A stretch of DNA of 64,000 nucleotides. Origin: Flaccisagitta enflata (Eukaryota). Both the position numbers and the translations under genes were made by a program. Positions 8,083 through 57,698 of this stretch are shown here, in pieces; position 1 is the first letter of the stretch, and each line of letters opens with the position of its first letter. The stretch lies in NCBI GenBank assembly GCA_965153355.1, contig OZ231126.1:42098001-42162000 (forward strand), given 5' to 3'. The notes beneath the pieces were generated by a model. That model saw nothing but the letters and a program-made list of their open reading frames with translations. It searched no databases and was not told where the DNA came from.

Positions 8083-8326
8083 AGTAGTATAGCCAGGTGT
8101 CTTGTGAATCAGCAGCGGTCAGCGCTCAAATCGCAAATTTCAGCTCGGATCAGCAGTAAATACCCGGTACATGCTAGGGCAGCGGCCAGGAATCGCCTAG
8201 CAATCTATGTGGAATGAATGAAGATTAGTACTGAATATATATATTTACTATGTTATGATTTTTTTTGTTTAAATAAACATTTTTTGTGGCCTCCGGACAA
8301 TATTTATTTAGCGGTCAGCATTTATT
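8083..8326 (+). repeat. Left terminal inverted repeat (244 bp)
   Basis: agtagtatagccaggtgtc...gcggtcagcatttatt is the reverse complement of 43478-43721. No mismatch seen by eye, including homopolymer lengths. Confidence 0.97.
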
Positions 8327-9640
8327 TATTGTTGTATGTAATATATTGTGTTGTATTACAATGTATGTTGCACTGATTACATGTATTTGTACTTTTTTGT
8401 TTGCCCCTTTTCTTTACTTGTGATTTTTAGCCGAGGCGAAATCATTTTTAGATTGAAAAGCATTTGAAATAGTCAATACCGAGTACAAGAATGAAAAAGG
8501 AAAAGGGAAAGAAAAAAAAAAACCGAAATGAACTTTGGATTAACCGATACACAGTACAGCTGCGGAGAGTGAGAATGACAAACGCCCGCAGATCTAAAGT
8601 GGATCTACCAGATACATAATACAGTTAAGAGAGGAACGGTAGAGAAGAGTGTGTAGTAGAGAGTAATGGATGCTGACATGGTACCTCGTGCGATTTTTAG
8701 TGGCGGAGAATTTGATTATAGAAGTTGAAGTGTAGATGGTCGGTAGGAATGACGAGTGGTTTCCAGGGTACTGCTTCTATCCAGTCGTGTTGCGAATAGA
8801 TCACCGCGTACTCGGCCTCGTGCGTTATGTAGTACGTTAGTGTAGTGTGTTGCCTTGGTACCGTTGCATACGTTGATTGCGGCGAATAGAGGACTGCGGA
8901 GGGAGGGCGAGAAAGACAAAAAGAGGTAATCGGATTCGAGTTTGGGTTACCGACTACGTGACAGGGCGAATGGGGATACATGAACGGAGAGTAGGTATGG
9001 GGTAGTACAGATATAGGGGATGCGACGTGGCTAGAGTGATGTTATGTAACATGTAGCATGTAGACATGTAGTGTATGTGCATGTTATTTTGATTTGTTTG
9101 GCTGATTTGTGAATTTTTCGGGTTCATATTGGAATTTTTGAGTTGATTTTAAGTTTTTGTGGTTCCTATTTGAATTTGTGAGTAGAGAATGTATTTTTTT
9201 TAGGTTGATTTGAAATGTGCAGAGGTGAGTTTTTAATGTTTTTTGGTGAGTTTTTAAATGTTTTTTTTCGTGGTGAATGTGGTAAATGAAATTTTTAGGT
9301 TTTGTAGGAAATACTGAAAGTCAGAATGGTAAAATTGGTAATGTAAAAGATTGTAGGATTGTACAGGAGTGGGGAAAAGAGTGCATATGGGATAATGTGA
9401 ACAGGGTGGGCTATGGGTGATGGGTGGAAGGTACGATTGGTGAGTGAAGTGGGAAGATTGTGGGTGGGGGGAAGAGGAAGAGGGGGGGGGGGAAGAGGAA
9501 GAGGATATGAGGAAGATGAAAAGGGGAAGAGCAATTTTTTTTTTTATATAGAAAAATATATGGAGAAGGAAGAGCAGGATGAGCAAAATAAAAATGAATT
9601 TGTATATATGCATTTGCATTTTGAAAATTTGATCATAATC

Positions 9641-11056
9641 ATGGCTGGAGAAAAAAGCAAAATTTATTCTGCAAAAACTCATCAATTTTTTCCGGGAAAT
9701 TTTGCGTGCGTTTTTGGTCAATCGTCTTCTGGTAGTTATTAGTCACAAAAAAATAATACTAGGTAATTTTTTTTTTAGATAAAAGTTAATAGGCATTAAG
9801 TGGAAATGTTTGGGATTTTGGGTGAATTTTTATTTGATTTGGAGCTTGATTAGGGGATACCAGTTACTTGAAAAATAATTGGATTTTTTACAAGTTTTTT
9901 TTTATTCTGAGCTTGAATAGGGGATACCTATTACTTAAAAATATGAGAAGGAAAAATTTAGAAGAAAAAAAATTTGATTTGAGGCTTGAATAGGGGATAC
10001 CATTTACATGAAAATTTGACAAGGTAAAAATTTAAAGAAAAAAAAATGATTTTAGGCTTGAATAGGGGATACCAGTTACTTGAAAAGATTGGATTTTTGG
10101 CAATTTTTTTTTTATTTGGGGTTTGAATAGGGGATACCAGTTACCTGAAAATTTGAAAATGCAGAATTTAGAAAGAAAAAAATTTATTTGGGGCTTGAAT
10201 AGGTGATACTGGTTACCTGAAAAGATTGGATTTTTGGCAAGTTTTTTCTTTTATTTGAGGTTTGAATAGGGGATACCAGTTACATGAAAATTTGAAAAGA
10301 TAAAATTTAGAAAAAAAAATTCAATTGAGGCTTGAATAGGGGATACCAATTACTTGAAAATTTGAATGTTGTGAGTGTATATTTTTTTGTGACCAAGTTA
10401 ACAAAACAAGGCAAAACGACATTCATTACCAATTTGGTGATTGAACATAAGTACCATTTTCGACAAAAAATTAAGAAGGTCGTGTATTTTTACAAAGAGA
10501 GTTGTGAAAGCATAGATCGGCTAAAGTCGCACCTGTCAAAGGAGCCCGGTGTGGAGGCGGTGTTTTCGAAAAAATTCCCCGATGGAAACTTTTTGGATTT
10601 TTGCAAGCCAGAGCAAGATGCGACAATTTTGGTGATAGACGACTTTTTTTTGATGCTACCACTGATGAAAAGATAAGAAAGGATTTGATTTCTTGCTCGA
10701 CTATCTGGACTCATCATTACGGTATTTCGAGTTTTCTGTGTCTACACAGCTACGACATATTTTTAAAGGCATCGAAACTGAATGTAATACTTATGAACTC
10801 AAGTCATCTCGTGTTTTTCAAGAGTTCACACGACGCGCGTGCCGCCAAGCGGCACATGAACCAGTACATGTTAAATTTGAAGGGGGGACAGACCCTCTTC
10901 GATGTCTACAAGCGTCACGTTCTCGAGAAAAATTTTAACTACGTCATAGCAGCTATTTCGCCTATGTGCACAAAGCCTACCTTGTGGGGACAGATTTTAT
11001 TGGCGGAGAATTTGCCGATGTTAGGGTTCCATGAGAGTAGCGACGAGGACGAGTGA
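9641..11056 (+). CDS. A32/FtsK-like genome-packaging ATPase; exons 9641-9731 and 10411-11056; apparent frameshift in the T8 run at 10644-10651
   Basis: Splicing GTAGTT(9732)...AAG(10410) creates Walker A CVFGQSSS|GKTTF. Walker B is ILVIDD. Downstream HHYGISSFLCLH and NSSHLVFFKSSHD match the Maverick ATPase pattern HHxNxS...NxxYLVLFKNPRD. About 245 aa if one T is added. Confidence 0.88.
9841..10365. repeat. Array of 8 copies of a ~30-bp core (g[c/t]ttgaataggggataccagttacttgaaaa) at ~65-72-bp spacing inside the ATPase intron
   Basis: Cores near 9841, 9909, 9981, 10053, 10118, 10191, 10257 and 10328. The spacers fall into two related AT-rich types. Confidence 0.9.
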
Positions 11057-12481: not shown

Positions 12482-12559
12482 AATCTGCATAGAGTGGACG
12501 GGAGGTGACAAGTGAGTGATAGGGGTGGTGAATGAGTGGAAGGAGTGACATTGAAAAAA

Positions 12560-13735
12560 ATGCGAATTGAGTCAAGGAAAGTGTTGAAAAGGGCCGTTAG
12601 TGGAAAGGGCTCTCCGTTATTCCTGTCTAAAAATGCTTACGAAATCGGAAAATATTTAAAGAGGAAAGGATTTGATGTGGAGCAGAGTGAAATACGGGAG
12701 TACCTAGCAGAGCAAAAAAGCAGTGACATAGTAATAAAAAACAACAGCGAGAAAAAAATAAGTGAAGTGTCTCGACCAGTAATTCTCCCTCCCAACTACT
12801 TTGAATGGTTGAACGTTGATTTGTGTTATTTGAGCAGAGATCGTGGCTATGGAAGCTCAAGTACTAGATACATTTTGGTCCTAATGTGCGGATTATCATT
12901 GTACACGTACTATGCGCCTTGTTCTGGGACTCGGAGTTCATTTGTTATAAAGAGTTTTCAGAGTATTTTCGACAGGTCCCCGTTTGTCCCAGAGCGATCA
13001 AAGAAGGTGTGGGGGGATTTAGGAATTGAATGGAGGTCGGTTGAAATTTCTCAATTTTTCAAAAAAAATGGCCTAAAATTCTACGGCATTCTTCCACGTC
13101 GGCTTGAGCGGAAGGGGCGTGGCAATGTATACGCCGAGCAAAGCATAAAACTTTTAAGACAATTTTTAGAGTCGTATCAAAGGGACGTTGGGAATGATGT
13201 GCCCTTTGCCCAAAAACTGTTGGAAATCGAAACAGCGGTTAATTCAAAGCCAAGGTCGAGTTTGAATGGAATGTCAAGCCGAGATGCTCTAAATGAAGAC
13301 CCACTTCATATACGGAATATAAAGGCGAGTAACCGCTTTCGGCGACGGAAAAGTTTGAGAAAGAATGTGATTAGCCCAGCAAAGTTACCCTTGTTTGCAA
13401 TTGTGCGTGTAAGAAAATTTGCAAAAAAAGATGGCCTAGGTGCAAAGGAGTCTCATGGGTCAATTTCAAGGAACTACTACTGCGTTATAGACGTTGAAAA
13501 TTATGACCATGTGGATTACCATTTGCTGGCAAGCGTGTTTAACTTGAAAAAAGTGAGTGATTCTAAGTTTAGTTATGCAGAATTGAAATTCTACCCCGAA
13601 ATGACTGTACCCAAAGCCCGATATTACAATGTTTTGAACAATTCTGAAATTGTTAAGCGTGACAATAATTATGTATATATGAAGCCCGATTATTGTGATG
13701 AAACGTTTTACGCTGCTAAAGATGCTTTGAAATAA
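12560..13735 (+). CDS. Retroviral-like DDE integrase (Maverick c-integrase), intronless
   Basis: WLNVDLCYL...YILVLMCGLSLYTY (D1), VWGDLGIEW (D2) and VYAEQSIKLLR (E, 39 residues between D2 and E). VNSKPRSSLNGMS matches YNxxxHSSIGMxP, and AIVRVRK matches GDxVRI. Confidence 0.9.
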   Translation: MRIESRKVLKRAVSGKGSPLFLSKNAYEIGKYLKRKGFDVEQSEIREYLAEQKSSDIVIKNNSEKKISEVSRPVILPPNYFEWLNVDLCYLSRDRGYGSSSTRYILVLMCGLSLYTYYAPCSGTRSSFVIKSFQSIFDRSPFVPERSKKVWGDLGIEWRSVEISQFFKKNGLKFYGILPRRLERKGRGNVYAEQSIKLLRQFLESYQRDVGNDVPFAQKLLEIETAVNSKPRSSLNGMSSRDALNEDPLHIRNIKASNRFRRRKSLRKNVISPAKLPLFAIVRVRKFAKKDGLGAKESHGSISRNYYCVIDVENYDHVDYHLLASVFNLKKVSDSKFSYAELKFYPEMTVPKARYYNVLNNSEIVKRDNNYVYMKPDYCDETFYAAKDALK

Positions 13736-19310: not shown

Positions 19311-22163
<2,853 letters not shown>

Positions 22164-23002: not shown

Positions 23003-26000
23003 ATGACATTTTCTCAAGGAGAGATAAACGCTATTATGCGTGATGAAAACGATATGAACACTGTGCTGTCTCGTGACTACTGTTCCACGATTCACCCAAC
23101 GTTAAGAAACAATTACCACAACGTAAAGAGTGCCCTTGTTTTCGCCCCTGGGAGATACACTTCAGAATTTGCAGTGAGAATTGCAAATCTGAGACCGGCA
23201 GAATTTGCCTTACGAAAGGACTTTTGGCCATCCAATTTTGAAACACACACAAACTTTCTCCGACTCGTGAAATCAATATTAATAACGCAGTTTGCCAATA
23301 CGAGAACATGTGTGGATATAAACTTCAGTATCTCACTGATAATTCTGGACGACGAGGACCCGTTTAATCCAGCTGGGACGTTCCTTTGGTCTAGTAGAAG
23401 TAACAATTCGTGCTTGGATCAGGCCTTCTTGATAGAAAGCCTGACCAGTCTAAACTACTTTGTTGACAACGTCGTGTCTCAGTTCTCAGTGGAAAACTAT
23501 TTACTAAAAAGCCTCGAAAGTCTAGAAAATAAGTATAATGGAGTCATTGTGCCCATAACGACTAATTTTTATATCACACTCAATACGGCAACAGTGTTTG
23601 GGGCCTCGGAAAGATGTGTAACAAGGTCTCTGAGTGACAATAACTGTGCTAACTCTGGAAAGTGTGACAAGGGGAACAATTGTGTGTGGCGGGCCCTTAG
23701 TGCGTTGATGACTTTGGACAAAGAACAATGGCCGGTACTCAGAAATAGTGCTAGAAAACGGACCAACCAAAAAATTGCAAGGAGGTTAAAGGCGCGATTC
23801 CTACAGTGGTATCGACACAACTATGGAAATGATAACTTTGTTGACCCAGTGAGTAGCCTAGGGTATGACTCTCGACTTCTACACGTGTTGGAAAAGTTCC
23901 TTGGAGTGGGGATAGTACTGGTGGAGCAAGTTAAACTGATAAAAAAAAAGGTCAGTTTTTATGGACTAGTTGACACTACGAAGGTGGCAAGATGCCTAAA
24001 AGTAAAATTTGCATCTAGAAAGAGATGCCCAAATACTATATTTTTGGCCTCTGATGGTCAATGTCACATACGCTCAGTGACAAATCTGCCTACTTTTGCA
24101 TACAAATACGTATGTAAAACATGCTCAAAGAGCTACAGATATGACCACGAGTTAAAGAAGCACAGGTGCAAAGATGTGAAATTTAGAGGGAGTGTAGTGC
24201 ACAAGTGGAATTGTTCGCTTTCAGTTGCTATTGAAAGGGCATTTGGCATGGAAAATGTGTTAAAAAGTGACACAAAATTTATGCATGTACTGATAAACGG
24301 GCTGGAAAGCGGAGGTGATGTTTCTGTAACGATGTGTTTTTCGTTACTAGGGGGTGATTACATGACCAAAACTGTGTCTGTCCCGGATTTGCGCTGTGCG
24401 TCGCAAGTAGTGACAACTAACTGCACAAAGGCGGCTTTGTTGGTGTTGGGTGAGAGATTGAAAAACAATTATTCGTTGTTGAAAAGGGTTGAAAACGATT
24501 ATCAGTCAGTGAGTATCAAATCTGACCCAGTGAAGGTTGAAAATTTGATAAAAGTTAAAAAGGGGCTTGTGGCCTTTCTGTCATCGTTTGCGTGCTACAT
24601 ACAAGTGGGGTGTAACGCCAATTTGACGACTAATGATGTAATGCACTCGTTTTTGGCAACGTTAAGCGACAACTACGATTGTGGTTCATTTGGCGTGAGA
24701 TTTGGAAAAAATGTGATACAAGGATTGGCAGTAAAAGGTAGCCCTGTGAAGTATGTGTCTCTAGCCGAATTTTCAACACAGTTTCGTGAATCTGAGGCCA
24801 GATACAGTCATGTAACAGAATGGGCCAACACGATTGAGAAATTTGAACAACATTTTGGACTGAATATAACAGGATTGAGTTTGGGCCAAATGGGCCATGA
24901 GTTGCTGGCAAACTGTTTGACAAATGTTGAACAAAGGATGTTTTTAACATCGCCTGTCGCCTTTCAGAAAAAAACTTATGATGTGAATGTACGATATGGC
25001 CTTCTATGTTCTGAGGGACCCAGTGTACTTACTCCAGAAACTGACTTTAAATCAGTGGCATCTTTAGACTTTTCACGTTTTTATTTTCATATTTTATGTA
25101 ACCCAGAAGAGAAAATAAGCGTCGGTTTGCCCATTCACTACAAGCAGGATGAAAGAGACAAAGTGTTTGTTGCGGAAAGAAATAGAAGGCGGAAAACGGT
25201 CGCTAATGTTTTCTTAAAGGTAATTGAAGTAGTTCTAGACACAACGGTGGTTTCTATGCACAACTCTCGTGAGGTGCGGTTTGATGGCAGGCCTGTAGAT
25301 GGCTATTTTTCACTCGGAGATGATGCGTTCATAGTCGAGATACAGGGCTGCGCAATTCACGGGTTAAAAAGTGGTGATAGTGATGACGATGATGACATGA
25401 GCATGCACAATGGAATATGTCACTTACCAAAAAACGTGATAGACGCGGAACATCCCGGACACATGCAGTCGTGTGACGTGTGTATTGCAAATAGTTCCGG
25501 AGAGTACAGCTATGTGCGGCCCAAGCTGTGGCGTCTGCGTGCACACGAAACAGTCGATTCAGTGCACTTTTACGACAAAAAACGAACCTATGGCGACATT
25601 TATGAATCAACGAGACAAAAGATCAAGAGCATTAAAGATGCAGGCTTTAAAGTTATTGATGTATGGGAATGTGACATCCTGAAGTTTTGGACCCGTCCTG
25701 TAGAGGATTTTTTTGCACGATGGAAACTATTAGTGAATGAGGCGTACAAGAATGTGCCCCTGGGGAAACTTATGGCAGAAATTTGCACACAAACGTTCCC
25801 GCTTTCTCTGCATCCCTACTTAACCGAAAGTCAAGTTCTGAAATATATAAAAGATGGCACGTTAAATGGTTATGCAACAGTGTCCTGTAAATTTGGGCCT
25901 ATGTCTCAAGCATTGCTAGGGAATGTTAAGCCATTTTTCATGAGAGGCAAAAATGGCGATGCCTACCAGACATTTGATATAGACGAGAAGTGCATCCCTG

Positions 26001-26908
26001 TGTCCCTTTTGAGTGAATTACTGAACAATGCCTCCTTTAAAGATTTTCAAGTGACTAGGGTTTATGATTTTTTTGAGTATGCTATTGCTAGAAAAAATCC
26101 CTTTGCACGACTCATGGGACCCGTGTTGGGCGCGTTGAACACAGACGGTAGTTCTTTGTTTTCAAAAGTATTGAAAATAAGCCTAAATGGTCAAATTGGC
26201 TGCTGGAATTATAATCCATTACGGCATAAAAAAAGTTTGCTGATAAATGAGACCGACATTGCCCACTTAAATTCAAGAGCAAACTTGAGTCACTGTACGC
26301 GTGTGAATGAGGATAAAGTTTTGATGCACGTAAAAAATGACAATCCCGTCTCCAATTTGTCACATCTTCACCTCAATATTTTGGGAATTGGAGTTGCTCA
26401 GATGCTACGGCTTATTACCGGGATGATAAACTATTATGGGTGTGCAGTAAGTAGAATAAATACCGATGGAGTTATTGTGAAATTCGAGGAGCAGCATCCA
26501 TTGAAATCTTTGTGTGAATTAAAAAAATATTCACTCATTTTTGACTCCTTTTTGGTGCGAACTGACTCTGGTGTTCAATTTCTAAAAAACTATCTAGACT
26601 GGAAAAAATGCTATTTTAAGCATTTGGGAGTTTGCCCCTCACATGAACAATTCTACCTAGAATGCTTGGCAAGCCAGAATGTGTCATTTTCTCCCAGTGA
26701 TTGTTGTAAAAGCTACATTAACACAAGTGCAAAGTATCCTTTATTGGTCGAATTTGTTGGAAACATTGGTATCTTTAAGTCAATTAATAGTCTGATACTC
26801 GCTAATACGATGGATAAATGCGTGTTTGTGAAAGGTTCTGGTTTAAGGCATTTGTCTATTGACGATCTTACTAACAAAAGTGTCGAAGATTTAACATTGT
26901 TGTTGTAA
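23003..26908 (+). CDS. Protein-primed family B DNA polymerase (pPolB) with Zn finger and Vsr-like nuclease insertion; divergent motifs; intronless
   Basis: 1301 aa. Motif A SLDFSRFY, motif B KISLNGQIG, motif C INTDG and C-terminal VKGSG. Zn finger CKTCSKSY...HRC. The insertion VDGY...VEIQGCAIHG...YESTRQKIKSIKDAGFKVIDVWECD is typical of group-2 Polinton polymerases. Confidence 0.9.
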   Translation: MTFSQGEINAIMRDENDMNTVLSRDYCSTIHPTLRNNYHNVKSALVFAPGRYTSEFAVRIANLRPAEFALRKDFWPSNFETHTNFLRLVKSILITQFANTRTCVDINFSISLIILDDEDPFNPAGTFLWSSRSNNSCLDQAFLIESLTSLNYFVDNVVSQFSVENYLLKSLESLENKYNGVIVPITTNFYITLNTATVFGASERCVTRSLSDNNCANSGKCDKGNNCVWRALSALMTLDKEQWPVLRNSARKRTNQKIARRLKARFLQWYRHNYGNDNFVDPVSSLGYDSRLLHVLEKFLGVGIVLVEQVKLIKKKVSFYGLVDTTKVARCLKVKFASRKRCPNTIFLASDGQCHIRSVTNLPTFAYKYVCKTCSKSYRYDHELKKHRCKDVKFRGSVVHKWNCSLSVAIERAFGMENVLKSDTKFMHVLINGLESGGDVSVTMCFSLLGGDYMTKTVSVPDLRCASQVVTTNCTKAALLVLGERLKNNYSLLKRVENDYQSVSIKSDPVKVENLIKVKKGLVAFLSSFACYIQVGCNANLTTNDVMHSFLATLSDNYDCGSFGVRFGKNVIQGLAVKGSPVKYVSLAEFSTQFRESEARYSHVTEWANTIEKFEQHFGLNITGLSLGQMGHELLANCLTNVEQRMFLTSPVAFQKKTYDVNVRYGLLCSEGPSVLTPETDFKSVASLDFSRFYFHILCNPEEKISVGLPIHYKQDERDKVFVAERNRRRKTVANVFLKVIEVVLDTTVVSMHNSREVRFDGRPVDGYFSLGDDAFIVEIQGCAIHGLKSGDSDDDDDMSMHNGICHLPKNVIDAEHPGHMQSCDVCIANSSGEYSYVRPKLWRLRAHETVDSVHFYDKKRTYGDIYESTRQKIKSIKDAGFKVIDVWECDILKFWTRPVEDFFARWKLLVNEAYKNVPLGKLMAEICTQTFPLSLHPYLTESQVLKYIKDGTLNGYATVSCKFGPMSQALLGNVKPFFMRGKNGDAYQTFDIDEKCIPVSLLSELLNNASFKDFQVTRVYDFFEYAIARKNPFARLMGPVLGALNTDGSSLFSKVLKISLNGQIGCWNYNPLRHKKSLLINETDIAHLNSRANLSHCTRVNEDKVLMHVKNDNPVSNLSHLHLNILGIGVAQMLRLITGMINYYGCAVSRINTDGVIVKFEEQHPLKSLCELKKYSLIFDSFLVRTDSGVQFLKNYLDWKKCYFKHLGVCPSHEQFYLECLASQNVSFSPSDCCKSYINTSAKYPLLVEFVGNIGIFKSINSLILANTMDKCVFVKGSGLRHLSIDDLTNKSVEDLTLLL

Positions 26909-27381: not shown

Positions 27382-27690
27382 TCACTCACTTTCTTCTTCA
27401 TCGTCAGATGGAACGTCCACGAGGATTTGTCGACGCCGTCTCTTCTCTTTATTCTTGGCCTTTTTCTCCCTGGAATAGGCCATCGTGTTGAAAAAGGGAG
27501 GGACGACGGGTTGGATGGAATCCGGTTCGGGCAAATCGGGAAACGTCTCCAGCGAGCCAAAAAGCGTGATGTAGAGCACAAGAATCGCCATCCCTTGAAG
27601 GTAGATAAGTGGTAACACATTTAGTAAGAAACGCACGAGAGTACCAACGCGTATGTACAAAAATATATGAGTGAGCGAATGTGTGTATGA

Positions 27691-27775
<85 letters not shown>

Positions 27776-28086
27776 TGGGTGTGTGTATGGGTGAGTGCGT
27801 GTGTATGTGTGTGTGTGTGTGAGTGTATGTGTGTGTAAGTGTGTATGTGCAAGTGCGTGTGTGTGTGTGTGTGTGTGTGTGAGTGTGTGTAAGTGTGTAT
27901 GTGAGCGTGTGTGTGAGTGTGTGTCTGTGTGCGTGAGTGTGTGTGTGTGAGTGAGTGTGTGTGTGAGTGTGTGTGTGAGTGAGTTTGTGTGTGAGTGTGT
28001 GTGCGAGTGAGTGTGTGTAAATGGATGTGTGTGAATGAGTATGTGTGTATGTGTGTGAGTGTGAGTAAGAGTGTGGGTGTGTGCGT

Positions 28087-28149
<63 letters not shown>

Positions 28150-31100
28150 CGTGAGTGTGAGTATGTGTGTGAGTGTGAACGTGAGTGTGTGTGTGTATGT
28201 GTGTGTGTGTATGTGTGCGAGTGAGTATGTGCGAGTGAGTGTGTGTGAGTGAGTGTATGTGTGTGTGTGTGTGAGTGTGAGTGTGAGTGTGAATGAGAGT
28301 GTATGTATGAGTATGTGCAAGCATGAATATGAATGTGCATGTATGAGCGTGTGCGTGTGTGTAAGCATGAATATGAGTGTGTATATGTGAGTGTGCGCGT
28401 GTGTGTAAGTGTGAATATGAGTGTATGTGTGTGGGTGTGTGAGTATGTGAAGCAAATTACCCGTTATGGTGCTTGGGGGGCCATTGACAAACACTTGACT
28501 TCTTTGATCGGGAGACCGCCAGAATTCGTCCTCCTCTGATATAGATTAGACATTAATTTACATTAAAAAAGGTCGGATACATGGCTACCATAGTTGCGTG
28601 TGAGTGGGTGGGGTTGTATTTGGGGTAATTTATTGATTTGGATAGGAGTAAGACTGATCATGGCAAAAGCCAAAAAAAAATGTGACATATGGATGGACGG
28701 ACGGATCAATACACGGCGTGCGAATGAGAATTCTTACCCGTTATGTTGTACTGGCGGCGCAACGAGTTTTTCTCGTTGTCGTCGAGGTCTTCCCATCTTT
28801 GCTCCGGCTTTAAAATTGGACATTGAATCCTGATTACGTACAGGCGATTCAGAAGACATTCCAACTCACTGGGTGAATTTGGCGCAAACTCGGAGATGTC
28901 GCAGTTAGACGAAACGACCACTGGCATATCTACGAGGAAGAGTGAACAATGGATAGTACGTGGATAAATAAAGAGAAACATGACAACAGACAGCGGCATG
29001 TGAAATGCTACATGTAAAAAGATGGTGAACTGAGAGTGGGAATTTACCGTGTTTGATGGCTCTTGATTCCGCGTGCTTGACGTTAATCGATCCGCGAATT
29101 CCCTCTAGAAATGGAAGAATAAATGACATATGAGTTGCCATGTATGCACTGTTTTTTGTGTGACACACTTGGTAATAACCAATGAATGTATATTTTCAGT
29201 GTGTGCAAAATGTTAATGTGTCTATGTCATGGAACAATAAAACTGAACAGTTATAATTTGTTTATTGATGCGTTGAAATAAACATACCAAAAAGTAGTTT
29301 GAGGTCGGCTTGGCGGAGGCCACACGATGGCTCAAGCTCGTCGGTGTAAACAACGTCTAAAAATAGAGAGAAAATTAAAAATACGGTTTGTTAAAAGACG
29401 ATAATTACTTCCTAATTATGCGAAAGTGAGGAGATTGGGTGAAGGAATGTGGTTGGGCAGGGACAGTGATGCAAAACCCTTTCAAATTTTGAGATTATTG
29501 TGAGATGTGTGGTAAGATCATTGTAGCAACTATACTGCATATAGGCAGAAATGTCAAAGTTGGTAGTTATCATATGTAGCTTACCAGTGGTAAAATAGAC
29601 GTTGTTCAAGTAAAACGCCGACGAGCTGAGGTTTAGTAAGGACGACTGCAGAGGTTGTACCAAAAGTGAGACAAAAAGGGTCTTCCCCTGTGTATAGATA
29701 ATAGATAGCAGATGGTTATACACATAAGTGGTACACAAATTGACAAACGAGAGTGTTGAGCTAACAAACAAGGCCAAGTAGATCAATAGGCGCGACGGTG
29801 TGGATTGTGAAATGAATGCTTTGCCAACAGACCAGTAGACCGACCAGCCAACCAACGGACACAACCAGTTATAGAGGTGCTTTGTCGCACCTGAAAGGGT
29901 GACATACATAACCATGCACTTGTACTTACCGTGTTAGAAGGTCCGCACAGAAAGAAACCGCAACGCTTCTGCGTCTTTGTGTCGCGCTCTTTGTCTTTTT
30001 TGGCCTGCTCGGCGCGACTGGCTTCAAACTCCCTCTTGTTTTTCAGGGCCATCAGTTGGGATAGAAGGTCGAAACCAGTTGACGATGTGGCGTGATCACC
30101 GGTGGCGAGTGGCGCAGTGACGTGACCGTTGGCGCCATTTGGCGCAGTGGCGTGACCATTGGCGCCATTTGGTGCGGCGGCGTGACCATTGGCGCCAGTC
30201 GGTGCAGTGGCGTGACCATTGGCGCCTTTGCCGCCTTTGCCTTTGCCTTTATTCTCTTTGGTTGGCACGGGGACAGGGTCCGGGGCAGGGGCGGCGGCCA
30301 GATTAGGATCTTGGGCGTCATCGTCGTTGAGGTATTGAGGATCTATTGGCGCCGAGTTTGTCTTGACCTCCTTTTTGTTGAGCGAGTGAGTGAACAAGTC
30401 GTTAACAAGTGCCAGGGTAGGTCGTGGCACAAGCGCGTTGCATACGAAGAAATCGTGCAGCTGGCAAAAAAAAAAAAAGAGAATGAATTGATAAGATATC
30501 ATTGTTGATCTAAAGAATAGACACCCCCCCCCCATCCATATTCATGTTATGTATGGGCATATGTCTGCTATAAATGTGTATTTTGGTGAGAAATGCATAC
30601 CCATTCAGCTTGACGATCGTAGATGTTGGGGGTTCTCTGGTATTCGCCGAAAAATTGGAGGATTTGTGTGTCCGTTGCACCCAGGTCTTTCGCCTTTTGG
30701 ATCATCTTATTCCAATTTTCTTCATCTTCGTTGTTCATTGCGGTGTATTCGTCGAGTTCGGCTTTGTAGCTGAATTAAGGGAAGTTTATTTGAAATGTAA
30801 GAATTAGCTGCAATTGGGCAAATGATTGGAAAGCCATGCCTCCGCCCCCCCCCCCCCCCATCTTATCAACTTACAATTCTGCTAGGCGAAGAATGTAGGA
30901 CTTTTTTCTTTTCCTTGACTGCTTGTCTTGGTTGAAGGTCTTGAACATTTCGCGTTGCAGCGCCTCACTGAGGTATTTAGAATGAAAACACATGAAAAAA
31001 AAATATGGTAATATTGAATATAAGCAACATGGGTAATTGGGTAGTGGCAGTAAAGCAAATGTAGATGAAACTCACCTTGATCCTTTCAAGAGCACTGCCA

Positions 31101-31856
31101 AGTTCACGTGCATTTCGAGTGATAGTTGTTGCGTCCACTCTTCAAACGAGGACGGGTCGAGCTTCTTCATAATCTATGAGGAAATGGGCAGTGATTATTG
31201 GAGTGGCTTAAAGCAAATGGGAGTGGTTAAAAATGACAAAGTGAAATAAACTGAATTAAAAATAAATTGGAATGGGTGAGTTTAGTTTAGAATGGCCCAA
31301 AATAACACAATGACTTGGAATGGGCAAATTTGGATTAGAATGATTAATTTAGGACCATTTAAATTGGCGCAGAATATGTTATATGTCGCACCTCGAGTAG
31401 TAGTGTTCTGTGGTTGTAGTCCGTCGTCATGGACTCATTCATTTCTGATTTCGCGACTCCTGAATAAATTGGAAGAAATAAAAAAGAAACCAGTTTAAAT
31501 GATGCATATGGAAAAAAAAAGAAACCGGGATAAGGGGGGGGGGTTAATATGCATAATTTGGTTAGTTGATTTACCGAAAAAATCTAGTTCTTTGGGAGCG
31601 GCAATTTCTGGGTTAGAGAACTGCAGCGTTGGTTTTCCTTTGCTGCCTTTTCCCAAAATCGCGGGTGGCAGATCCAAGTTGAACGTTGGCTTCTGTGGCT
31701 TGAGGAAGGTCTGGAAACACGATTCTTCGTCTATACCCTCGGCAGGCGATGTAGCAACCTATATGGAATGGGGAGGGGGTAAAATGCAATTTTGTATTTG
31801 TATTTTACTTTTTTATTGATTTTCTTGCTCTCACTCTCACTCTCACTCTCACTTTT

Positions 31857-31933
<77 letters not shown>

Positions 31934-32016
31934 TCTCTCTTTATTTTTGTTTTTCGCTCTCACTCTCTCGCTCTCACTCTCACGCTCTCACTCTCACACT
32001 CTCACTCTCACTCTCA

Positions 32017-32049
<33 letters not shown>

Positions 32050-32250
32050 ACTCTCTCACTCTCACTCTCACACTCTCACTCTCACACTCTCACTCTCACA
32101 CTCACTCTCACACTCACTCTCACTCTCACACTCACTCTCTCACTCTCACTCTCACACTCACTCTCACACTCACTCTCACACTCACTCTCACACTCACTCT
32201 CACATTCACACACTCTCACTCTCACTCTCGCTCTCGCTCTCGCTCTCGCT

Positions 32251-32285
<35 letters not shown>

Positions 32286-34130
32286 TCTTGCTTTCTCTCG
32301 CTTTCTCACCCTCTTGCTCCCCACTTTCTCATTGTCACCTTTTCTCTGTATTTTTAGCTTTTTTTTTTTTGTACGGCGAAAGCCGCCTTTACTAACCTGC
32401 TGTATGAATTCAAGAAGAGGCGGGCCGCAGCGTGCACTACCCCTTTTTGGTACGGCGTTGTCGATGTCAACGCAAAAACGCATCCGTTCCAAATGAATGT
32501 CGCCCGTGGATTGACAGCATCTTGACTGTAAATAAAGATGCATCCACGTTTAAACTTTATATAACGAGTACAGCAACAACAAAATTGAACACATGATTCA
32601 AGTAGAACAGTATTATACTTTGAAATTCTATAGGACGAATCACAAACCTCATAATCTACTGGAGAAACAAGTGCCGTAGCAACTTGTAAAAGCGACGCGT
32701 TATTTGCGGTGATAAGTCCAGATCTTCTTAGGATCGCATCTCGCGTCGGTATCATGCCCGCGTCCAGCTCGGATTTCTGCTTCACATTGGCGATACGTTT
32801 CACGAAGTTCGTTAAATCATCATTCCATTTGTGGCCTGAAAATGAAAATGATTATGAAAATGAAAAGGTTCAAACAACACCCTCAGGCACTAAAGCACTC
32901 CAAATGGAAATACAGTTGTAAATATGCACGATTAAGTAAACAAACCTTGACTGACGAACCAAATGCAGTGAAAATGCTCCTTATCTTCGTCGTGCAAGCC
33001 AACCATGTCGTACCTACAACAGATACGCGTGTATGACATAAAATTAGAATGAACGAGTAAATATGGCCAACCGACCGACGGACCGACATAGTGGGTGCAG
33101 AGCCGCTTATCACATGACTAGAAATTGGCTAAAAATTGACTAAAAATGACCAATCGATCGACACAGTGGATGTAGAGTCGCTTATTATATGACTAAAAAT
33201 TGCAATACATAAATATAAGAACAATGATTTACCTGAAGTGATGTGTATACCAGGAACGTTCAGATGGCCTTTTTTCCAGGAATTTGGTTTTGAACTCATC
33301 AGTCGTTAGTGTAGGCGCGAGAATTCTGAGGTCCCTATGAAAGTAGAGTGAAATAAATGAAATAGGGGAAAGATATAAATGGGTCGAAACAGTCATAAGT
33401 GAATTAAAATGAGTTTATATGTTTTTAACTGGAATAACATGGACACAAGCAATATCAACACTGTTTAGGATCACCTGTTGAATATGATGCAGTGGACGAA
33501 ATTTGGCGCCTTCGTTCCCTCGGCTTTGTGCTCCTCGCGCCTTTTAGCTATGAGTCCTTGGCGATGTTCCCACCCAGGAATGGGGGGAGGAGCGTTTGGG
33601 GGGATGGGTAGGTCATCTGGTAGAGGAATGGGGATGTCATCCGGAGAGTTGGGCCCGGAAGTTGGACCGAGAGGTTGGACTTGTAAGGCGGATTCGGACT
33701 CGGATGTGGCAGCGTTTACGTCGCCTTCTTCTCTTTCCATCTGAAGTGGCACTACGGCGGCACACGGCAGTACGGCAGTGATATTGCCTTTCGGAGTCGG
33801 TGGGTTGTCGACGAATTCACCGTCGTCGTCCGAAGCCACTGTGTTTGACGCGACGCTGCTACCACTTGGAGAGGCCGACCGACATTCTGAACGCGGCGAC
33901 GAAGGCGGTGGCGATACCAGCGATACCAGCGGTGGTGACGGGTCATCGACGTGAGTCGGGCCGATGACGTCATCGGCATCGCTCTCTGATTCGTCCGTCT
34001 CAGAATCAGTTTCGACATGCTCTGCCGATTTGTATTCTCGCTTTGGTTTGTGTCTTTTGAGTTTATTTTGCTTTTTTTTGCTCATAGGAGAGTTTTCATT
34101 ACCAGACATGTGTCTCTTTTTACCATTCAT
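27382..34130 (-). CDS. NS1/Rep-like protein: HUH-like motif plus SF3 helicase, 17 exons: 34130-33475, 33334-33233, 33013-32946, 32835-32648, 32525-32397, 31758-31575, 31459-31392, 31173-31076, 30967-30875, 30769-30601, 30460-29930, 29687-29585, 29356-29288, 29104-29048, 28929-28738, 28535-28461, 27593-27382 (~997 aa)
   Basis: All introns are GT-AG and phase-consistent (2994-nt CDS). Walker [14 protein letters not shown], Walker B VVYTDEL, B' [15 protein letters not shown], motif C MPVVVSSN and Arg finger CLLNRLYVI. Upstream [14 protein letters not shown]. The last acceptor (27594) is the least certain. Confidence 0.85.
27665..28450. repeat. Degenerate (TG/TGAG)n microsatellite filling the last intron of the helicase gene
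   Basis: Direct reading. It explains the THTH ORFs. Similar tracts lie in MCP introns 1 and 5 ((GA)n at ~19575-19894 and ~20770-20957) and in helicase intron 5 (~31828-32290). Confidence 0.9.
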
Positions 34131-34499: not shown

Positions 34500-37400
34500 T
34501 TAGCTCTTTTCTTTCGCATGGGTGAGTAGCAGGGCAGTAAGTAGGTAATTGAAGTGATGGTGAGAGTCGAGTAAGAATTTGCTGAAAACTGATGCGTTTT
34601 TGTCTTTAACCAAATGAATGGATTCAAGATGGCGATAAAATGGAATGACTGACTTGAACTGTACCTTACATTTCACACATCTTACCCCTTCTGAAAAATA
34701 GTTTAAAATCTCTGATGAGATATGCGAGAAAATGTCCGAGAACAAATGTGACTCACCACAGATGTGACAGAGGCAGCTGTGATTTTCATCTTTAAAATGG
34801 CAGATTATGTCCTCATACATGCCTTTATGATAGGTAAATTCTTTGGGACAATTTTTGCATTTTTTGTTAACGCCAACTTCTAATAAATTCTTTTTGACAA
34901 AATCGCATGCCCCTGTTGTCACGTGCTGTCGAGCAGTCAAATTTTTGCCGCGACTAGGAAATAAACAAAAACAGTATTGGCAGCATTTACTAGGAATCAA
35001 AGTCTTACTTTTTTTCGCTATCCCATCCTTGCGCACAACTGGAAGATCTCCCGACTGCCTTGACGCCCCAATACTTGTATTAGGACGCTTTGGTGGCCTA
35101 AATCCCGATGGCATGGCAGATGGCGCCTTTCTCTTGATTGACGCTTGGTTGACAGTCGACGATGGCGAAACGTGCTGAGTCGACTGACTGACGGAAGGCT
35201 GGTGCGACTGTGTGGACGGATGAAGAGGTTCACACTTGGGCATATTTGCATCCGAGGGTGAATCGGCGACATCCATATGTTTGGATGAAGAGGATGGTTG
35301 ATGGCGATTGGATGCAGATGGATTTGACGGGCGCATTGAGGACGATTTGGCGCTGTTCATCGCGTCTGACGAGGAAGATGGCTCTTGGCGTGGAGGCACG
35401 GTTTGGCGACGAGAGGCTGGATTGGCGACATTCTGATCATTTGATGAAGAAGGTTGTTGTGTGTGGCGGGGATTATCTTCGCGTCGAGGGGCAGGGTTGG
35501 CGACGTTCTGCTGGTTTGATGAAGACGGTTGTTGTATGTGGCGAGGTTTGTCTTCGCGCCGAGGGGCAGGGTCGGCGACGCCTTGCTCATTTGATGAGGA
35601 AGGTTGCTGTTGGCGTTGTGACGCTGTATGGCCCTGGGACGTCGAATCTGGCGCAGATGGCGTGCTTTGATGTCGAGGAGCGGGATTTACCGCCTGTCGC
35701 GCAATTGGTTGACTCATATGGTCCGTAATTACGGACTGTTTTTTTCCTTGAGTGTCCTTCATGAGCGGATTTTCCTTAGTGTAGGCATCCTGACGAATTT
35801 TCGCGGCGAAGGCGGCGGAATCACGATCGTGAAACCCAGCTTGTGCGGTGACCAACGTAGTAAGAGGGTATCGATCAGAAACAACGCCATTTTTAGGCGC
35901 CAGTCTCAAAGAAGCAGCACCTCGAGACAACTGGACATTGCCGTCGTCGGCGAAAGATTGGTAGGCCGCTGGTAGATCACTCGTTGTTGTTGGGAGGTCA
36001 AATTCCTGCATAGCTTGTGCTAGCATATCTGCTGCCGCGTTGCCCTCATTTGCCATTTGCTCGTCTCCCTCTCCGACCTCCACGTCTTCATCCTCCTCAT
36101 CATTTCCACTTCTCCCCTCGCCCACGTTTCCCTCTTCATTCCCATTGCCACGTTGTTCCTCATCCCCACTCTCACCTCCATCCCCATCCCCATCTTCCTC
36201 GTCGCTTATATCTTCGTAATAGGAGCCATTTTCATCTTTACATGGCGTATTTCGACCACTGTTGATGAGACGGTATGCAGAATCCTCGCTTATCTGACTG
36301 CTTACCTCCCCTTCTTGACTCTGAGTCGCGTCACCTCCTTGGCCATCACCCGCCTCACCTCTCGGGCTTTCACCTTCAACATCCCCGTGGTCGCGCTGCT
36401 TATCTCTTTGTGTCAGTTCTGACACAGCGTCCATCGGTATTTCGTCGTCACTGTCGCCGAACATTTCGTCGATTGTTGGGCTTACTACCTCTGGTCTGGG
36501 CGCTGAGTTGTTGGCTTCAAAAGTAGCTGGTTCATGGCCATTTCCGGTTGGGGGAATAGACGCAGACGGAAATGCATTTGAAGATGTTGATGGCGTCTTT
36601 TTTTCGACACGCGTGGTAGAGCAGTCTATGACGACGCCTCCTGACGAATTTGGTGCTGCCATGATTCTGTTGTTGTGTTCCACAGCGACGACTGGTACTC
36701 TCGATGACGATGACGATGACGCCAAATCCACCAGCTCGTCGACGGGAGCGCGTTCGGCGTCGACGTGAACTTTTGTCGTCGTCGTGATGGATGGGTTAAC
36801 ACCAGAATTGACGTCAGAATTGGCGCCAGAATTGACGCCAGTTGACGAGGCACTCGACGTGAGATTTGCATCAGAATTGACGTCAGAATTGGCGCCAGAA
36901 TTGACGCCAGTTGACGAGGCACTCGACGTGAGATTTGCATCAGAATTGACGTTAGAATTGGTGCCAGAATTGACGCCAGAGGGCGAAGCATTCGAGGTGG
37001 GATTCGCATCAGAGTTGACGTCAGAATTGGCGCCAGAATTGACGCCAGTGGACGAGGCAGTTGACGCCGAATTCACATCAGAGTTGACGTCAGAATTGGC
37101 GACAGGATTGACGCTAATGGACGAGGCGTTTGACACATCAGAGACGTCGATGGGCTGGGAGCCAGAGGCCTGAGGGTTGACCACATGAGACGACGTATTG
37201 GCAGAAGAACTGGTCGCGGAAGAGGTTGCAGTCGTACGGAGATTAATCGTATCGGGGTACGAGCGTGATCTTGCAGTCTCTTCCAATTGTGCGACCTTCG
37301 CTTCCATGTCCTTCAATGGAAAAATAAAGGTAGAATGTATCAGCAGACCAAAATATAACTCAAGTACCTGCAATGCACAGTAATAACATGGGCAATGTTG

Positions 37401-38482
37401 ATCAACATTTCAATAACAAAAGAAATAAACTTTAACACAATGAAATGGGTTACCTCCACTAATTCGGGCTCGATTTCCCGCACCGACGGTGGGACTTGAA
37501 AATATGACTCTTCTGGATCACCGGTGAGGACATTTGATGAGTTGTCGATTACCAATTGCGCGAGTCGCTCATATCGTTCAATGGATCCAACATTTAGTTC
37601 TTCTTTTCCCGTCATTAGGCGCTGCCGTAATTCCGCCATCTGAGTGGATGTTTATGTTTTGAGTTGCATACATGTGGCTATATATGTTTTGTCCATACGT
37701 TAGACAGTTAACCACACTTTACTTTGTTTTTTTTTCTTTGTAATTCTAAAGAAAATAAATAGATGTGCACATTCAAGGTTAACTACCTCATTGGCTTCTT
37801 CTTGATTTAGGCCTTCGTCCTCGGCCTTTCTGTTGAACGTGTCCACCAACTGACGGTAACTTGACATATAGCCGTCACGCTGCGCCCTTCTTTGGTCCAA
37901 GGCAAGCTCCAGACTCTCTTTGGCACTAGCATGATTACTAGAAACCACGTTGAGTTGATCCTAAGTTGCATACACAATTTGCAGAATGAAGTTCGTTATA
38001 GCTGTCTCTCATTAGGTAATGTGGGTGGTAGTAGTATGGAAGGGAGAGAGGAACATCACAACAAGCATTAATTAATACAAATGCCTACATGACTGGTAGA
38101 AGCAACAATAAATTTAAATAAAACATTAATTTATATAAAAAAAACAAATAACAAATAATAATCCCACCCCATACACACCCCACCTGAGCCATCTATACTT
38201 ACTTCCAACCATCTAACTTAAATGCTATTTAACATTGCTGAATGTATACTAACCTGTGCTTCGGTGATTTGTCCATTGATGTCTGCCAACTTCTGTTCGG
38301 CGGCGGTCTTTTCCTTCCCCAACTTGTCAAGCTGGTCGGTCCACGCTTGTACTGCCGCTTCGTGGGTCTTTGCTTGGTCGGTGAGTTGCTTGTTGAGGCC
38401 ACTGATGGATTTTTCCGTCTTTTCGGCCTTTCTCTTCATCTTTCCACACGCGTGCCAATCGCCGTACAACTCATCACTTATC
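34500..38482 (-). CDS. Large (~1100 aa) protein: N-terminal coiled coil, long disordered repeats, C-terminal multi-zinc-finger region; exons 38482-38254, 37960-37787, 37639-37454, 37310-34500 (5' end uncertain)
   Basis: Phase-0 GT-AG introns join the ORF-track fragments. The C-terminus has CQYC..H..C, CKNC..H, CHIC..H and CVKC..H..H, and there are internal repeats (SSTGVNSGANSDVNSDANLT; QQPSSSN..VANPA). Confidence 0.75.
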
Positions 38483-43135: not shown

Positions 43136-43477
43136 CGGCTTTCGCCAGTTCTGTACTATTGTTTCGTATTTGCTAAAAACAGTTGACAAAGAGAGTTTTT
43201 TCTCAGGGGTAGTCAATTCGTCTAAATCATCTTATGTTACGACATTCTCAATCAAAATACGGTTTCTTTTTAATATGCAAACTGTTTGTAGTACACGAAC
43301 CCATTTACCGATGCACGATAACACACAGATAGACATCACATTTTACTTTCTAAGATTGTTCGTCATGTTCGTATGTAATCATTCGGGTAATTAATAGCTC
43401 TGCAATATGCAAATGAGATCCAGGTGTGTAGACGGGACTGGGTAAATCAGATGCAATTTGAATGAAATCAAAGATTT

Positions 43478-43721
43478 AATAAATGCTGACCGCTAAATAA
43501 ATATTGTCCGGAGGCCACAAAAAATGTTTATTTAAACAAAAAAAATCATAACATAGTAAATATATATATTCAGTACTAATCTTCATTCATTCCACATAGA
43601 TTGCTAGGCGATTCCTGGCCGCTGCCCTAGCATGTACCGGGTATTTACTGCTGATCCGAGCTGAAATTTGCGATTTGAGCGCTGACCGCTGCTGATTCAC
43701 AAGACACCTGGCTATACTACT
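43478..43721 (-). repeat. Right terminal inverted repeat (244 bp)
   Basis: Reverse complement of 8083-8326, ending ...ggctatactact and followed by CATGT. Confidence 0.97.
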
Positions 43722-45001
43722 CATGTAGCGAAAAAACTTCCGGGCGACAAGGAGTCCTGACCGGGTACCACGACTAGGAGTAATTGCCTAATTGTTTTTT
43801 TGTGTGTATAAACTATAAAGGCGTCAACACTTAAGTGTACAAAGGAATTTGACAGGAAGTATTCTCATGAAAGGAGGGCCTCATATACTAACTGACTCAC
43901 CATCGGACAAACAAACTCACTTTTATAATTTTAGTGTGGACGCGGTTAGAAAGGCGTTATTGCGCAAAGACAAGAAGATCTTGAACCACCCATCATGAAC
44001 AAAAGCAAGGCCGAATACGTGACTACTCAAGTCGCGTGCAAATGGGCAGGGTCAGTTAGAAGACTAATCAGGCATTTGAGCAGGGGCAAAGATGCTAAGA
44101 GGTCCACAACACATAAAAACCAAACGACCGACTGACCAAAAGACAGCGAAGAGAGTCGTGTTGTACACATTCCCATACTTCCATCGCCAAGCGCTTCATT
44201 TCTTGGGAAAATCTTTATAGTTGCGGTCGCGCAACTCTAAAAGTGTAAGAGGCTTTGAACAACCATCAGTCCGTCCGTCGTTCCGTCTGTGATGATCGAG
44301 TCAAAAAGTGGAAAAACGAGCGGTGTGTATGGGGTTATATGCCCCTGCCCACCCGTCTGCAACGATATTATGACCCCGCGTCACTTGTTTTTCCGTCCAT
44401 CTCGCTTTTTCTGTCGTAAATATTCAGGTAAATTTAGCCCCATTTTTGAAGTCAATTTTTTTCCTCTTTAGCTTGTATTTTGTAACAGGAATGTAGTAAA
44501 TGTCTTAGTATTAATTTGCGCAACTACTTATACTTTTCTTAAGGCTTGGGAAGCTTAGTCTTTGATGACTGACAAAGATTAAGCCTTGTAACTGGGTAAC
44601 ACTTCTTTGTTATTGTCGTTTCCGAGAATTCACGACAGTTTTTAGTCGCGTGCTTCGCGACTCTGCACCCCGCTTTGTCGGTCCGTCTGTCCGTCGGCCC
44701 GTCCGTTACACTTTACTTTTCTTGGGTTTTTGCAGTCTATGGCCTTACTGCTCCTGCCCAAGTGATCAAGTGACCTCAAATACGGCCCCTGCCCAACCGC
44801 ACGCGACTGGGGTAGCCGTGTATCCGGCGTTGTTCTCTGATGCCATACAAGCGTGTTTGTAAAGTGATGGAGAGTTGGGTTTTTGTTCCTCGTCGGTTAA
44901 AACTTGGGTATGTAAATATATCGTGCAAAAACACCATTCCGACCAGTCATACGTATTACATGTCAGTATAACGTTTTAGCTTCAAAGACGAAAGAGAAAG
45001 C

Positions 45002-57353: not shown

Positions 57354-57698
57354 CGGCTTCTGGCTCCTCGCTTCGCCTCGGTATTCGAAGCATTACATTG
57401 CGTCTGCGATTCTCCTAGATTGTGAAGCGGGAAAACTTGAATTGCAACTTTTGTCTCCCGTTTTCAGTAATGTTTTTAGGTGCGACAAAGCACCTCTATA
57501 ACTGGCTGTGTCCGTTGGTTGGTCGGTTGGTCTGTTGGTCGGTAACGCATTCGTTCGACGATCCACACGTCGCACCTATTGGCCTACTTGGCCTTGTTGT
57601 TACTATAGTCGACCTGGATAATCTTTCTTCCCCTCACTCTCTCCCTCTCTCTCTCTTCCTTCCTTTCTTTCTCTCTTTCCTTCTTCCTTTCTTTCTTC

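Follow-up and report, generated by a model that had tools for sequence, protein, structure and literature searches.

Our analysis of a 64,000-nucleotide stretch of the Flaccisagitta enflata assembly (GCA_965153355.1, contig OZ231126.1, positions 42,098,001 to 42,162,000; hereafter the window, whose own numbering is used throughout) points to a replication protein (Rep) gene of about 17 exons within a 35.6-kb Polinton/Maverick-like mobile element, with a C-terminal half that would encode a superfamily 3 (SF3) helicase of the Rep class, in a lineage of its own. We put the probability of this reading at roughly 0.68. The gene occupies positions 34130 to 27382 of the minus strand and, judging from its sequence, is a real protein-coding gene for an intron-split SF3 helicase. 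The window, which is eukaryotic DNA, contains microsatellites and GT..AG introns, and the element carries, beside the Rep gene, candidate genes for a DNA polymerase B (PolB) and an integrase.

An intron-split helicase gene

Three-frame translation and direct reading of the DNA revealed six short minus-strand exons, located from 30.1 down to 28.4 kb, that hold the motifs of an SF3 helicase. Exon 11 (29930–30460) ends in ..CGPSNT, the first half of the Walker A motif, and exon 12 (29585–29687) opens with the second half, GKTLF (GGG AAG ACC for GKT), the two being separated by a 242-nt phase 0 intron (29688–29929, GTAAGT..CAG). Exon 13 (29288–29356) contains VVYTDE, the Walker B motif, followed by LKLLF; exon 14 (29048–29104) contains motif B′ (G.RGSINVKH..); and exon 15 (28738–28929) contains both motif C (MPVVVSSN) and the Arg finger (LLNRL), ahead of exon 16 (28461–28535, EDEFWRSP..). 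The five introns that split this core all have GT..AG borders and fitting phases, the four downstream of the Walker A intron being phase 1. In the joined core, the motifs start at residues 51 (Walker A), 91 (Walker B), 119 (INVKH), 135 (motif C) and 157 (LLNRL), in the order and at the spacing of the SF3 (AAA+) family, and they align to SF3 profiles in one stretch. A preliminary description of the same DNA had placed the five motifs at these minus-strand positions, with GPSNT joined to GKT over the intron 29929–29688, and our reading bears this out. All eight introns checked in the gene are GT..AG with fitting phases, and the exons shown are free of in-frame stops.

Relatives of individual exons, all of them short open reading frame (ORF) fragments from metagenome or run assemblies, place several of these boundaries independently of the splice signals. 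An exhaustive HMMER search with exon 15 returned five hits, four of them true relatives (96, 71, 69 and 50% identity, with LLNRLYV.R invariant) and one, P0017, a repetitive false match. Fragment P0014 lacks the exon 15/16 intron and joins NIT/EEDEFW exactly at the point predicted from GT..AG, and P0016 has an additional in-frame insert within exon 15. The largest N-terminal ORF, exon 4 (32619–32835), has four relatives at 98–61% identity, which define a strongly conserved block with 36 invariant columns. The most distant of these, P0022, lacks the intron between exon 3 (32946–33013) and exon 4, reads EHYHCIWYLSRGHKWNED straight over the junction (VSQ/GHKW, within ..HYHCIWYLSRGHKWNED..) exactly as GT..AG predicts, and also holds the stretch of exon 2 (33233–33334, AG/GT sites). 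Together with GPSNT/GKT, these are three junctions at which homology fixes the boundary to the base, with GT..AG at each, and since all three coincide with canonical splice sites, the agreement is not due to chance. An intron-free Walker A junction was also sought among the relatives, yielding only P0023, a copy at 97% identity in which the Walker A intron and its donor are retained; this indicates that introns are copied along with the element as it multiplies.

The remainder of the gene model comes from a simple exon-chain search of our own, with codon usage taken from the element's long ORFs and splice matrices from the eight checked introns. Run freely, the search produced a chain from the ATG at 34130 to the stop at 27384–27382; two of its exons, located in microsatellites, and its exon 2 were spurious or mis-set and were corrected using the relatives and a mask. 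Constrained by the relatives' junctions, and with the microsatellites masked, it gave 17 exons and 987 residues with the helicase motifs in exons 11–15. Compared with the 17-exon, 997-residue model of the preliminary description, the ends, the number of exons and the motif-bearing exons stand, and the length is revised to 987 residues. Exon 1 (33475–34130) begins with the ATG at 34130, encodes a basic, acidic, Pro-rich stretch ending in ..NFVHCIIFN, and has its donor GT at 33474. The 3′ ends of exon 4 (alternative donor at 32647) and exon 16 were set by the chain search, and the 5′ end of exon 11 is predicted. The chain search was also the sole guide to exons 5 (32397–32525), 6 (32310–32343), 8 (31392–31459) and 9 (31076–31173), and exons 7 (31575–31758), 10 (30601–30769) and 17 (27382–27593, with the stop) are likewise predicted. 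Since a search of this kind nearly always yields some open chain, we treat exons 5–10 and 17 as predictions and not as findings.

The introns have features of their own. A dispersed repeat of about 135 bp, with copies at 80–84% identity, occurs at 29762–29896 within the Walker A-splitting intron, at 21762–21896 elsewhere in the element, and at 5586–5711 and 57474–57602 outside the element. Introns 33232–33014 and 28737–28536 contain shorter repeat pieces that also recur outside it. As intron presence differs among the relatives and introns carry host repeats, intron gain through the insertion of host repeats is a candidate idea. Two introns of the Rep gene contain long microsatellites (27680–28424 and 31855–32287; (TG)n-type and (CT/CTCTCA)n-type), and the open frames of these microsatellites (THTH.., SLSL..) mislead ORF lists and an unconstrained exon search.

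Class and lineage of the helicase

Is the helicase of the Rep class, or is it a D5-like primase-helicase or a stand-alone SF3 helicase, as is usual in Polinton-like viruses and virophages? References were collected by scanning IMG/VR with back-translated Walker A patterns and labelling the resulting ORFs by Pfam (Parvo_NS1; PPV_E1_C; Polyoma_lg_T_C; Viral_Rep or Gemini_AL1 with RNA_helicase for CRESS Rep; RNA_helicase for 2C; and D5_N, DUF5906, Pox_D5, VapE or DUF927 for D5-like proteins). From the labelled seeds, phmmer (E 1e-15) enlarged the classes to 49 NS1, 67 E1, 12 CRESS Rep and 14 D5-like sequences, with no overlaps. The query was built by a script that joined the exons by coordinates and wrote X for every split codon; 3000 shuffles with Walker A held fixed served as the control. 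Over the full domain, the window helicase scored 35.5 bits on the NS1 profile, 36.4 on E1, 40.8 on CRESS Rep, 59.6 on a profile of all 128 Rep-class sequences, and 26.3 on the D5-like profile. Because the references were chosen by Walker A, the region behind this motif is the fair comparison, and there the scores were 15.6, 14.2, 21.2, 30.1 and 2.2 bits, respectively. None of the 3000 shuffles reached the Rep-class scores on any profile; the D5 score was reached by one of 3000 over the full domain, and by nine of 3000 and five of 2000 behind Walker A. The Rep-class alignment is a single stretch of 131 residues over Walker A, Walker B, B′, motif C and the Arg finger (57.9 bits), whereas the D5 alignment covers Walker A alone. 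The part upstream of the core, where a D5-like protein would have its D5_N or primase region, scored −1.2 bits on a D5-N profile. Profiles for large T antigen (LT) and picorna-like 2C gave −1.5 and 0.7 bits with the window helicase.

Cross-validation, leaving out one subfamily at a time, shows that Rep-class and D5-like helicases are separated by such profiles. With a Rep-class subfamily held out, its members had a median of 12.4–22.9 bits against the Rep profile built from the others, and their D5 score never exceeded 7.2. The D5 subfamilies, held out in turn, gave 11.0, −0.3, 18.1, 13.5, 1.4 and 24.5 bits against the rest of the D5 set and stayed at or below 11.9 on Rep. In the same setting, the window helicase had 30.4 bits on Rep and 3.2 on D5. 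The score also exceeds what single ORFs give: among 819 stop-to-stop ORFs of at least 40 aa in the window, none exceeded 11.4 bits on the Rep-class profiles, compared with 59.6 bits for the joined exons, and the two best ORFs on the full-domain profile are two of the gene's own exons. The profile scores and the cross-validation thus indicate a Rep-class SF3 helicase and not a D5-like one. The preliminary description had reached this view from the style of the motifs, and the comparison of NS1, E1 and D5 profiles that it proposed, run here with our own class profiles on the joined core, ranks the Rep class best and D5 weakest. A D5-like or stand-alone SF3 helicase of the usual kind therefore seems to us highly improbable, although the full-domain D5 score is seldom matched by shuffles, the tree described below joins the protein to the D5-like clade, and stand-alone SF3 helicases beside PolB have been reported (preprint 10.64898/2026.10.13.758929).

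Where within the Rep class does the protein belong? Tested against each other's profiles, NS1 and E1 members reach 17.3 and 21.0 bits, and the window helicase has 15.6 and 14.2 bits on the same two profiles; on the CRESS Rep profile its 21.2 bits compare with 9.0 for NS1 members and 4.6 for E1 members. By these scores, NS1 is not a nearer relative of the window helicase than E1 or CRESS Rep, and the protein is best called a separate Rep-class lineage, approximately as distant from NS1, E1 and CRESS Rep as NS1 is from E1. A maximum likelihood tree (37 rows, 139 columns) recovered NS1 (96/89) and E1 (99/96) as starred clades, both without the window protein, which lies on a long branch (1.9) at a node between D5-like and Rep-class proteins; the branch that joins it toward the D5-like clade measures 0.026, with an unstarred support of 90/80. 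Approximately unbiased (AU) tests rejected neither a position as sister to NS1 (p 0.255) nor one as sister to E1 (p 0.25). Given the unstarred placement and these tests, the tree is evidence neither for nor against the profile result. In this phylogeny, of the kind that the preliminary description had looked to, the protein falls outside the NS1 clade, on the branch between D5-like and Rep-class helicases, and the NS1 and E1 sister positions fare alike.

In the N-terminal part of the protein, exon 3 encodes HFHCIW, a motif of the HUHUUU type that reads HYHCIW in the 61%-identical relative P0022, and conserved Tyr residues follow at +71 and +77, with the subsequent Lys hinging on a predicted splice. 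In our Pfam-labelled references, the distance from the HUH motif to YxxxK is +59 to +98 in 42 Parvovirinae NS1 proteins, two divergent NS1 proteins have YxxK at +42 and +57, and 10 CRESS Reps have YxxK at +38 to +45; the spacing in the window protein lies inside the NS1 range of 59–98 and outside the CRESS range of 38–45. The N-terminal part showed no similarity to any of the reference ORFs fetched and did not score when compared with a profile built from 49 NS1 N-terminal sequences, nearly all of Parvovirinae. That it is an HUH-derived domain is a tentative suggestion, to which we assign slightly less than even odds.

These features bear on the origin proposed in the preliminary description, namely that parvovirus NS1 proper was captured by a Polinton, as a parallel to or an intermediate in the origin of bidnaviruses. 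An insertion of parvoviral genes into a polintovirus scaffold has been proposed by Krupovic and Koonin (PMC4061559), and the kept HUH-type motif, the Tyr spacing, the unrejected NS1 sister position, and the presence of GPSNTGKT and K-L-[IL]-F-E-G in two NS1-labelled contigs (L006 and L059) would fit such a capture. However, behind Walker A the NS1 score is about equal to that on E1 and below that on CRESS Rep, the starred NS1 clade excludes the window helicase, the NS1 N-terminal profile gives no score, the Lys of YxxxK hangs on a predicted splice, and the ORFs scanned yielded no VP-like (parvovirus capsid) gene. We therefore depart from the preliminary description on this point and consider capture of a parvovirus NS1 unlikely; a separate Rep-class lineage is the reading that we carry forward.

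The host element and its other genes

The stretch from 8083 to 43721 (35,639 bp) is an inserted mobile element with terminal inverted repeats (TIRs) and a 5-bp CATGT duplication. The left TIR (8083–8342, plus strand, 260 nt) starts with AGTAGTATAGCC, its identity beginning exactly at 8083, and is 97% complementary to the right TIR (43462–43721, minus strand); the two copies of the target-site duplication (8078–8082 and 43722–43726) were read directly on both flanks. This combination of TIRs and a short target-site duplication is that of Polintons/Mavericks, and it agrees with the leads for PolB and for an rve-type integrase in suggesting a Polinton/Maverick or adintovirus-like element, the genes of which fall short of the Pfam standard. 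The preliminary description had located the Rep gene in a Polinton that kept an integrase and a double jelly-roll capsid protein. The TIR-bounded, duplication-flanked element upholds the first part, with PolB-like and rve-like ORFs recognized through look-alikes and not through Pfam; for double jelly-roll capsid, penton and adenain-type protease, no Pfam or PHROG match was found on the ORFs scanned, and no test was aimed at them. The 64-kb window contains no second copy of the element. Over 8000–32000, GC skew is strongly positive (0.2–0.42) in those parts in which the element's genes are on the plus strand, and it drops to about zero or lower in the parts with minus-strand genes.

The PolB-like ORF (23003–26908, plus strand, 1301 aa) is intronless and shows, by eye, an OTU-like GNNCVWRAL motif and the polymerase motifs DFSRFYF, KISLNGQIG and INTDG. 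It has 12 relatives at 47–99% identity, and all 30 named Atlas clusters among its language-model look-alikes are PolB families (DNA_pol_B_2 in 27, DNA_pol_B in three). A Foldseek search with an AlphaFold2 (AF2) model of its C-terminal 743 aa (mean predicted local distance difference test score, pLDDT, 54.7) placed phi29 polymerase at ranks 1–6 with non-significant E values of 0.086–0.28, and no match reached E 0.001; at the sequence level, the ORF has no Pfam or PDB match, even when searched as a profile. Its motif C is NTDG instead of the usual DTDS, with N, T, D and G invariant in all 12 aligned sequences. Between polymerase motifs A and B lies an insert (residues ~700–1040, about 25100–26110) with VDGYF..E.QGCA.HG and invariant Cys and His residues, the sole part with an AF2 pLDDT of 70–89.

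The integrase-like ORF (12536–13735, plus strand, 399 aa from stop to stop), also intronless, has a D..D..E spacing by eye, and PF00665 rve occurs in 29 of the 30 named Atlas clusters among its look-alikes (scores 0.94–0.96), with no Pfam match even at E 10. Exons resembling a packaging ATPase (10329–11056, plus strand; ..QGKTTF.. and ..ILVIDDFF..) were likewise picked out by eye. Just upstream of the Rep gene, on the minus strand, lies a long open frame of 969 aa (34500–37409) without a Pfam match; it is repetitive and rich in Ser, Asn and Pro, and its C-terminal part is rich in Cys and His.

Near-identical copies (96–99%) of PolB and of three Rep exons are present elsewhere, and the relatives of PolB and those of the Rep exons span a similar range of divergence, which fits a shared history. 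Alignments of PolB and exon 4 yielded no relatives with DNA context in IMG/VR or in the JGI metagenomes.

Several observations weigh against the reading of a Rep-class helicase gene serving a Polinton-like element. The linkage of PolB and Rep, which here are neighbors in tail-to-tail orientation, is known from the element in this window alone, and neither the PolB nor the integrase nor the ATPase candidate has a Pfam match. Single exons and a three-exon read-through (exons 12–14, stops as X) found no Pfam (E up to 10) or PDB match and did not reach the Pfam gathering scores of Parvo_NS1, PPV_E1_C or RNA_helicase, so that the class assignment depends on small profiles of our own and on exons joined by script; moreover, Walker A patterns guided the choice of references for these profiles, the few D5-like sequences come from phages, and two of six held-out D5 subfamilies were recognized by neither profile. 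The joining branch in the tree points toward the D5-like clade. The joined N-terminal 154 residues gave nothing above shuffles on profiles of NS1-N, the E1 DNA-binding domain, the CRESS nuclease or D5-N; an AF2 model of P0022, which covers the N-terminal exons, was unusable (pLDDT 37); and the chain search is the source of exons 5–10 and 17. Finally, in a polyA RNA run of the labelled organism, of which about six in 100 were read, only two partly fitting reads were found on 28450–31850, with no joints and no transcript. The RNA mapping covered the downstream half of the gene outside its long-microsatellite stretches; a marine metatranscriptome shared 5% of words and aligned only to a low-complexity piece of intron (29837–29896).

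Could the gene be a silent relic, that is, an endogenized Rep gene that acquired host introns and repeats, no longer serves the element and is perhaps unexpressed? The RNA data would be as expected for such a passenger, as would host dispersed repeats in introns that recur outside the element, and the contrast between the intronless PolB and integrase ORFs and the approximately 16 introns of the Rep gene fits a different history. On the other hand, the exons shown are open, with canonical splice sites; the catalytic motifs are complete, and no relative, even at 50% identity, departs from them; and the 96–99% copies of PolB and three Rep exons, along with the 97% alike TIRs, agree with a family that was active until recently and takes the gene along, introns included. 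We regard a relic as decidedly unlikely. A functional gene of the element remains our preferred reading, and the Rep gene would then be a stable component of the element family and not a one-off passenger.

Proposed role and comparison with known systems

In conjunction, these observations lead us to propose the following model. The element would be transcribed in the nucleus and the Rep pre-mRNA spliced, and the resulting protein would assemble into an SF3 ring helicase. This ring may open the element's DNA in or close to its terminal repeats and unwind it, ahead of the element's own protein-primed PolB, with the conserved N-terminal domain possibly binding the origin and conceivably acting as an HUH-type nicking module. 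The division of labor is that proposed for bidnaviruses, in which a parvovirus-type SF3 helicase works beside a Polinton-type PolB (PMC4061559).

What is the relevance of such a combination? Self-replicating elements of the PolB type and small DNA viruses of the Rep type have been treated as separate worlds of replication, joined so far only in bidnaviruses, the origin of which was deduced and not observed. One integrated element with a putative PolB, a putative integrase and a Rep-class helicase, together with relatives at 47–99% identity, could make the proposed mixing step testable: whether PolB and the helicase cooperate, whether the N-terminal part binds or nicks the terminal repeats, and where the helicase branches among NS1, E1, LT and CRESS Rep. 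The Rep gene may have been acquired from a donor Rep lineage or have been present ancestrally; either is conceivable. The gene is also a clear example of a virus-type gene interrupted by numerous spliceosomal introns not shared by all relatives, and because no single exon matches Pfam, virus mining based on ORFs would miss it. One may speculate further that the chimera from which bidnaviruses are proposed to have arisen lives on in this element family, with a scaffold of PolB and integrase using a full Rep gene (HUH-derived domain and SF3 helicase) whose helicase is a deep lineage beside NS1, E1 and CRESS Rep. We think this improbable at present; if true, Polinton-like elements would be a reservoir, or even a source, of small-DNA-virus replicases, and the Rep gene would have stayed in a host nucleus for the time needed to acquire some 16 introns.

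The closest likeness at the level of the protein is to the Rep-class helicases of Shotokuvirae (NS1/Rep, E1 and CRESS Rep). They share with the window gene the Walker A form GPxNTGK[ST], a Walker B motif about 40 residues further on, ..INVKH in B′, ..VVSSN in motif C and the Arg finger, as well as an N-terminal domain ahead of the helicase. Unlike these genes, the one described here belongs to none of the three groups, with 14–21 bits on each behind Walker A; it has no nuclease or origin-binding domain recognizable by profile, it has about 16 spliceosomal introns, and it sits in a 35.6-kb element with PolB-like and integrase-like ORFs.

Bidnaviridae and the 'bidnaparvoviruses' combine, in one replicon with inverted terminal repeats, a PolB of the protein-primed type and a Rep-class SF3 helicase (PMC4061559 and PMC8502044), a pairing that the element appears to share. 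Krupovic and Koonin derive the bidnavirus combination from a parvovirus genome inserted in a polintovirus (PMC4061559), and Starrett et al. describe 'bidnaparvoviruses' with PolB and NS1, and MELD viruses with a D5-like S3H (PMC8502044). In contrast to bidnaviruses, the scaffold in F. enflata is large, integrated and duplication-flanked, with an rve-like integrase and no parvovirus capsid gene in the ORFs scanned, and parvoviral descent of its helicase appears unlikely.

Polintons/Mavericks and adintoviruses resemble the element in their TIRs, 5-bp duplication, 5′-AG terminus, OTU-like N-terminal motif on PolB and rve-like integrase, an OTU-like domain on PolB being given as typical of adintoviruses in a preprint from the Buck laboratory (10.1101/2024.03.25.586562). 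At 35.6 kb, the element is about twice the usual 15–20 kb (PMC5718144), its genes are all too divergent for Pfam, and it has the Rep-class helicase gene in addition. We found no Polinton/Maverick with an NS1-, E1- or CRESS-type helicase in the literature searched, and the supplements of the preprints may list closer cases.

Exchange of replication genes has itself been reported in related elements. According to two preprints (10.64898/2026.10.13.758929 and 10.64898/2026.06.19.733378), replicase modules are frequently swapped in Polinton-like viruses and virophages, Circovirus Rep-like nickases occur in one virophage family, and HUH endonucleases are found with rve integrases in 'Zora'-type elements. 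In Polinton-like viruses, virophages and mriyavirus-like elements, however, Rep or HUH proteins mostly replace PolB, whereas the element described here appears to have both.

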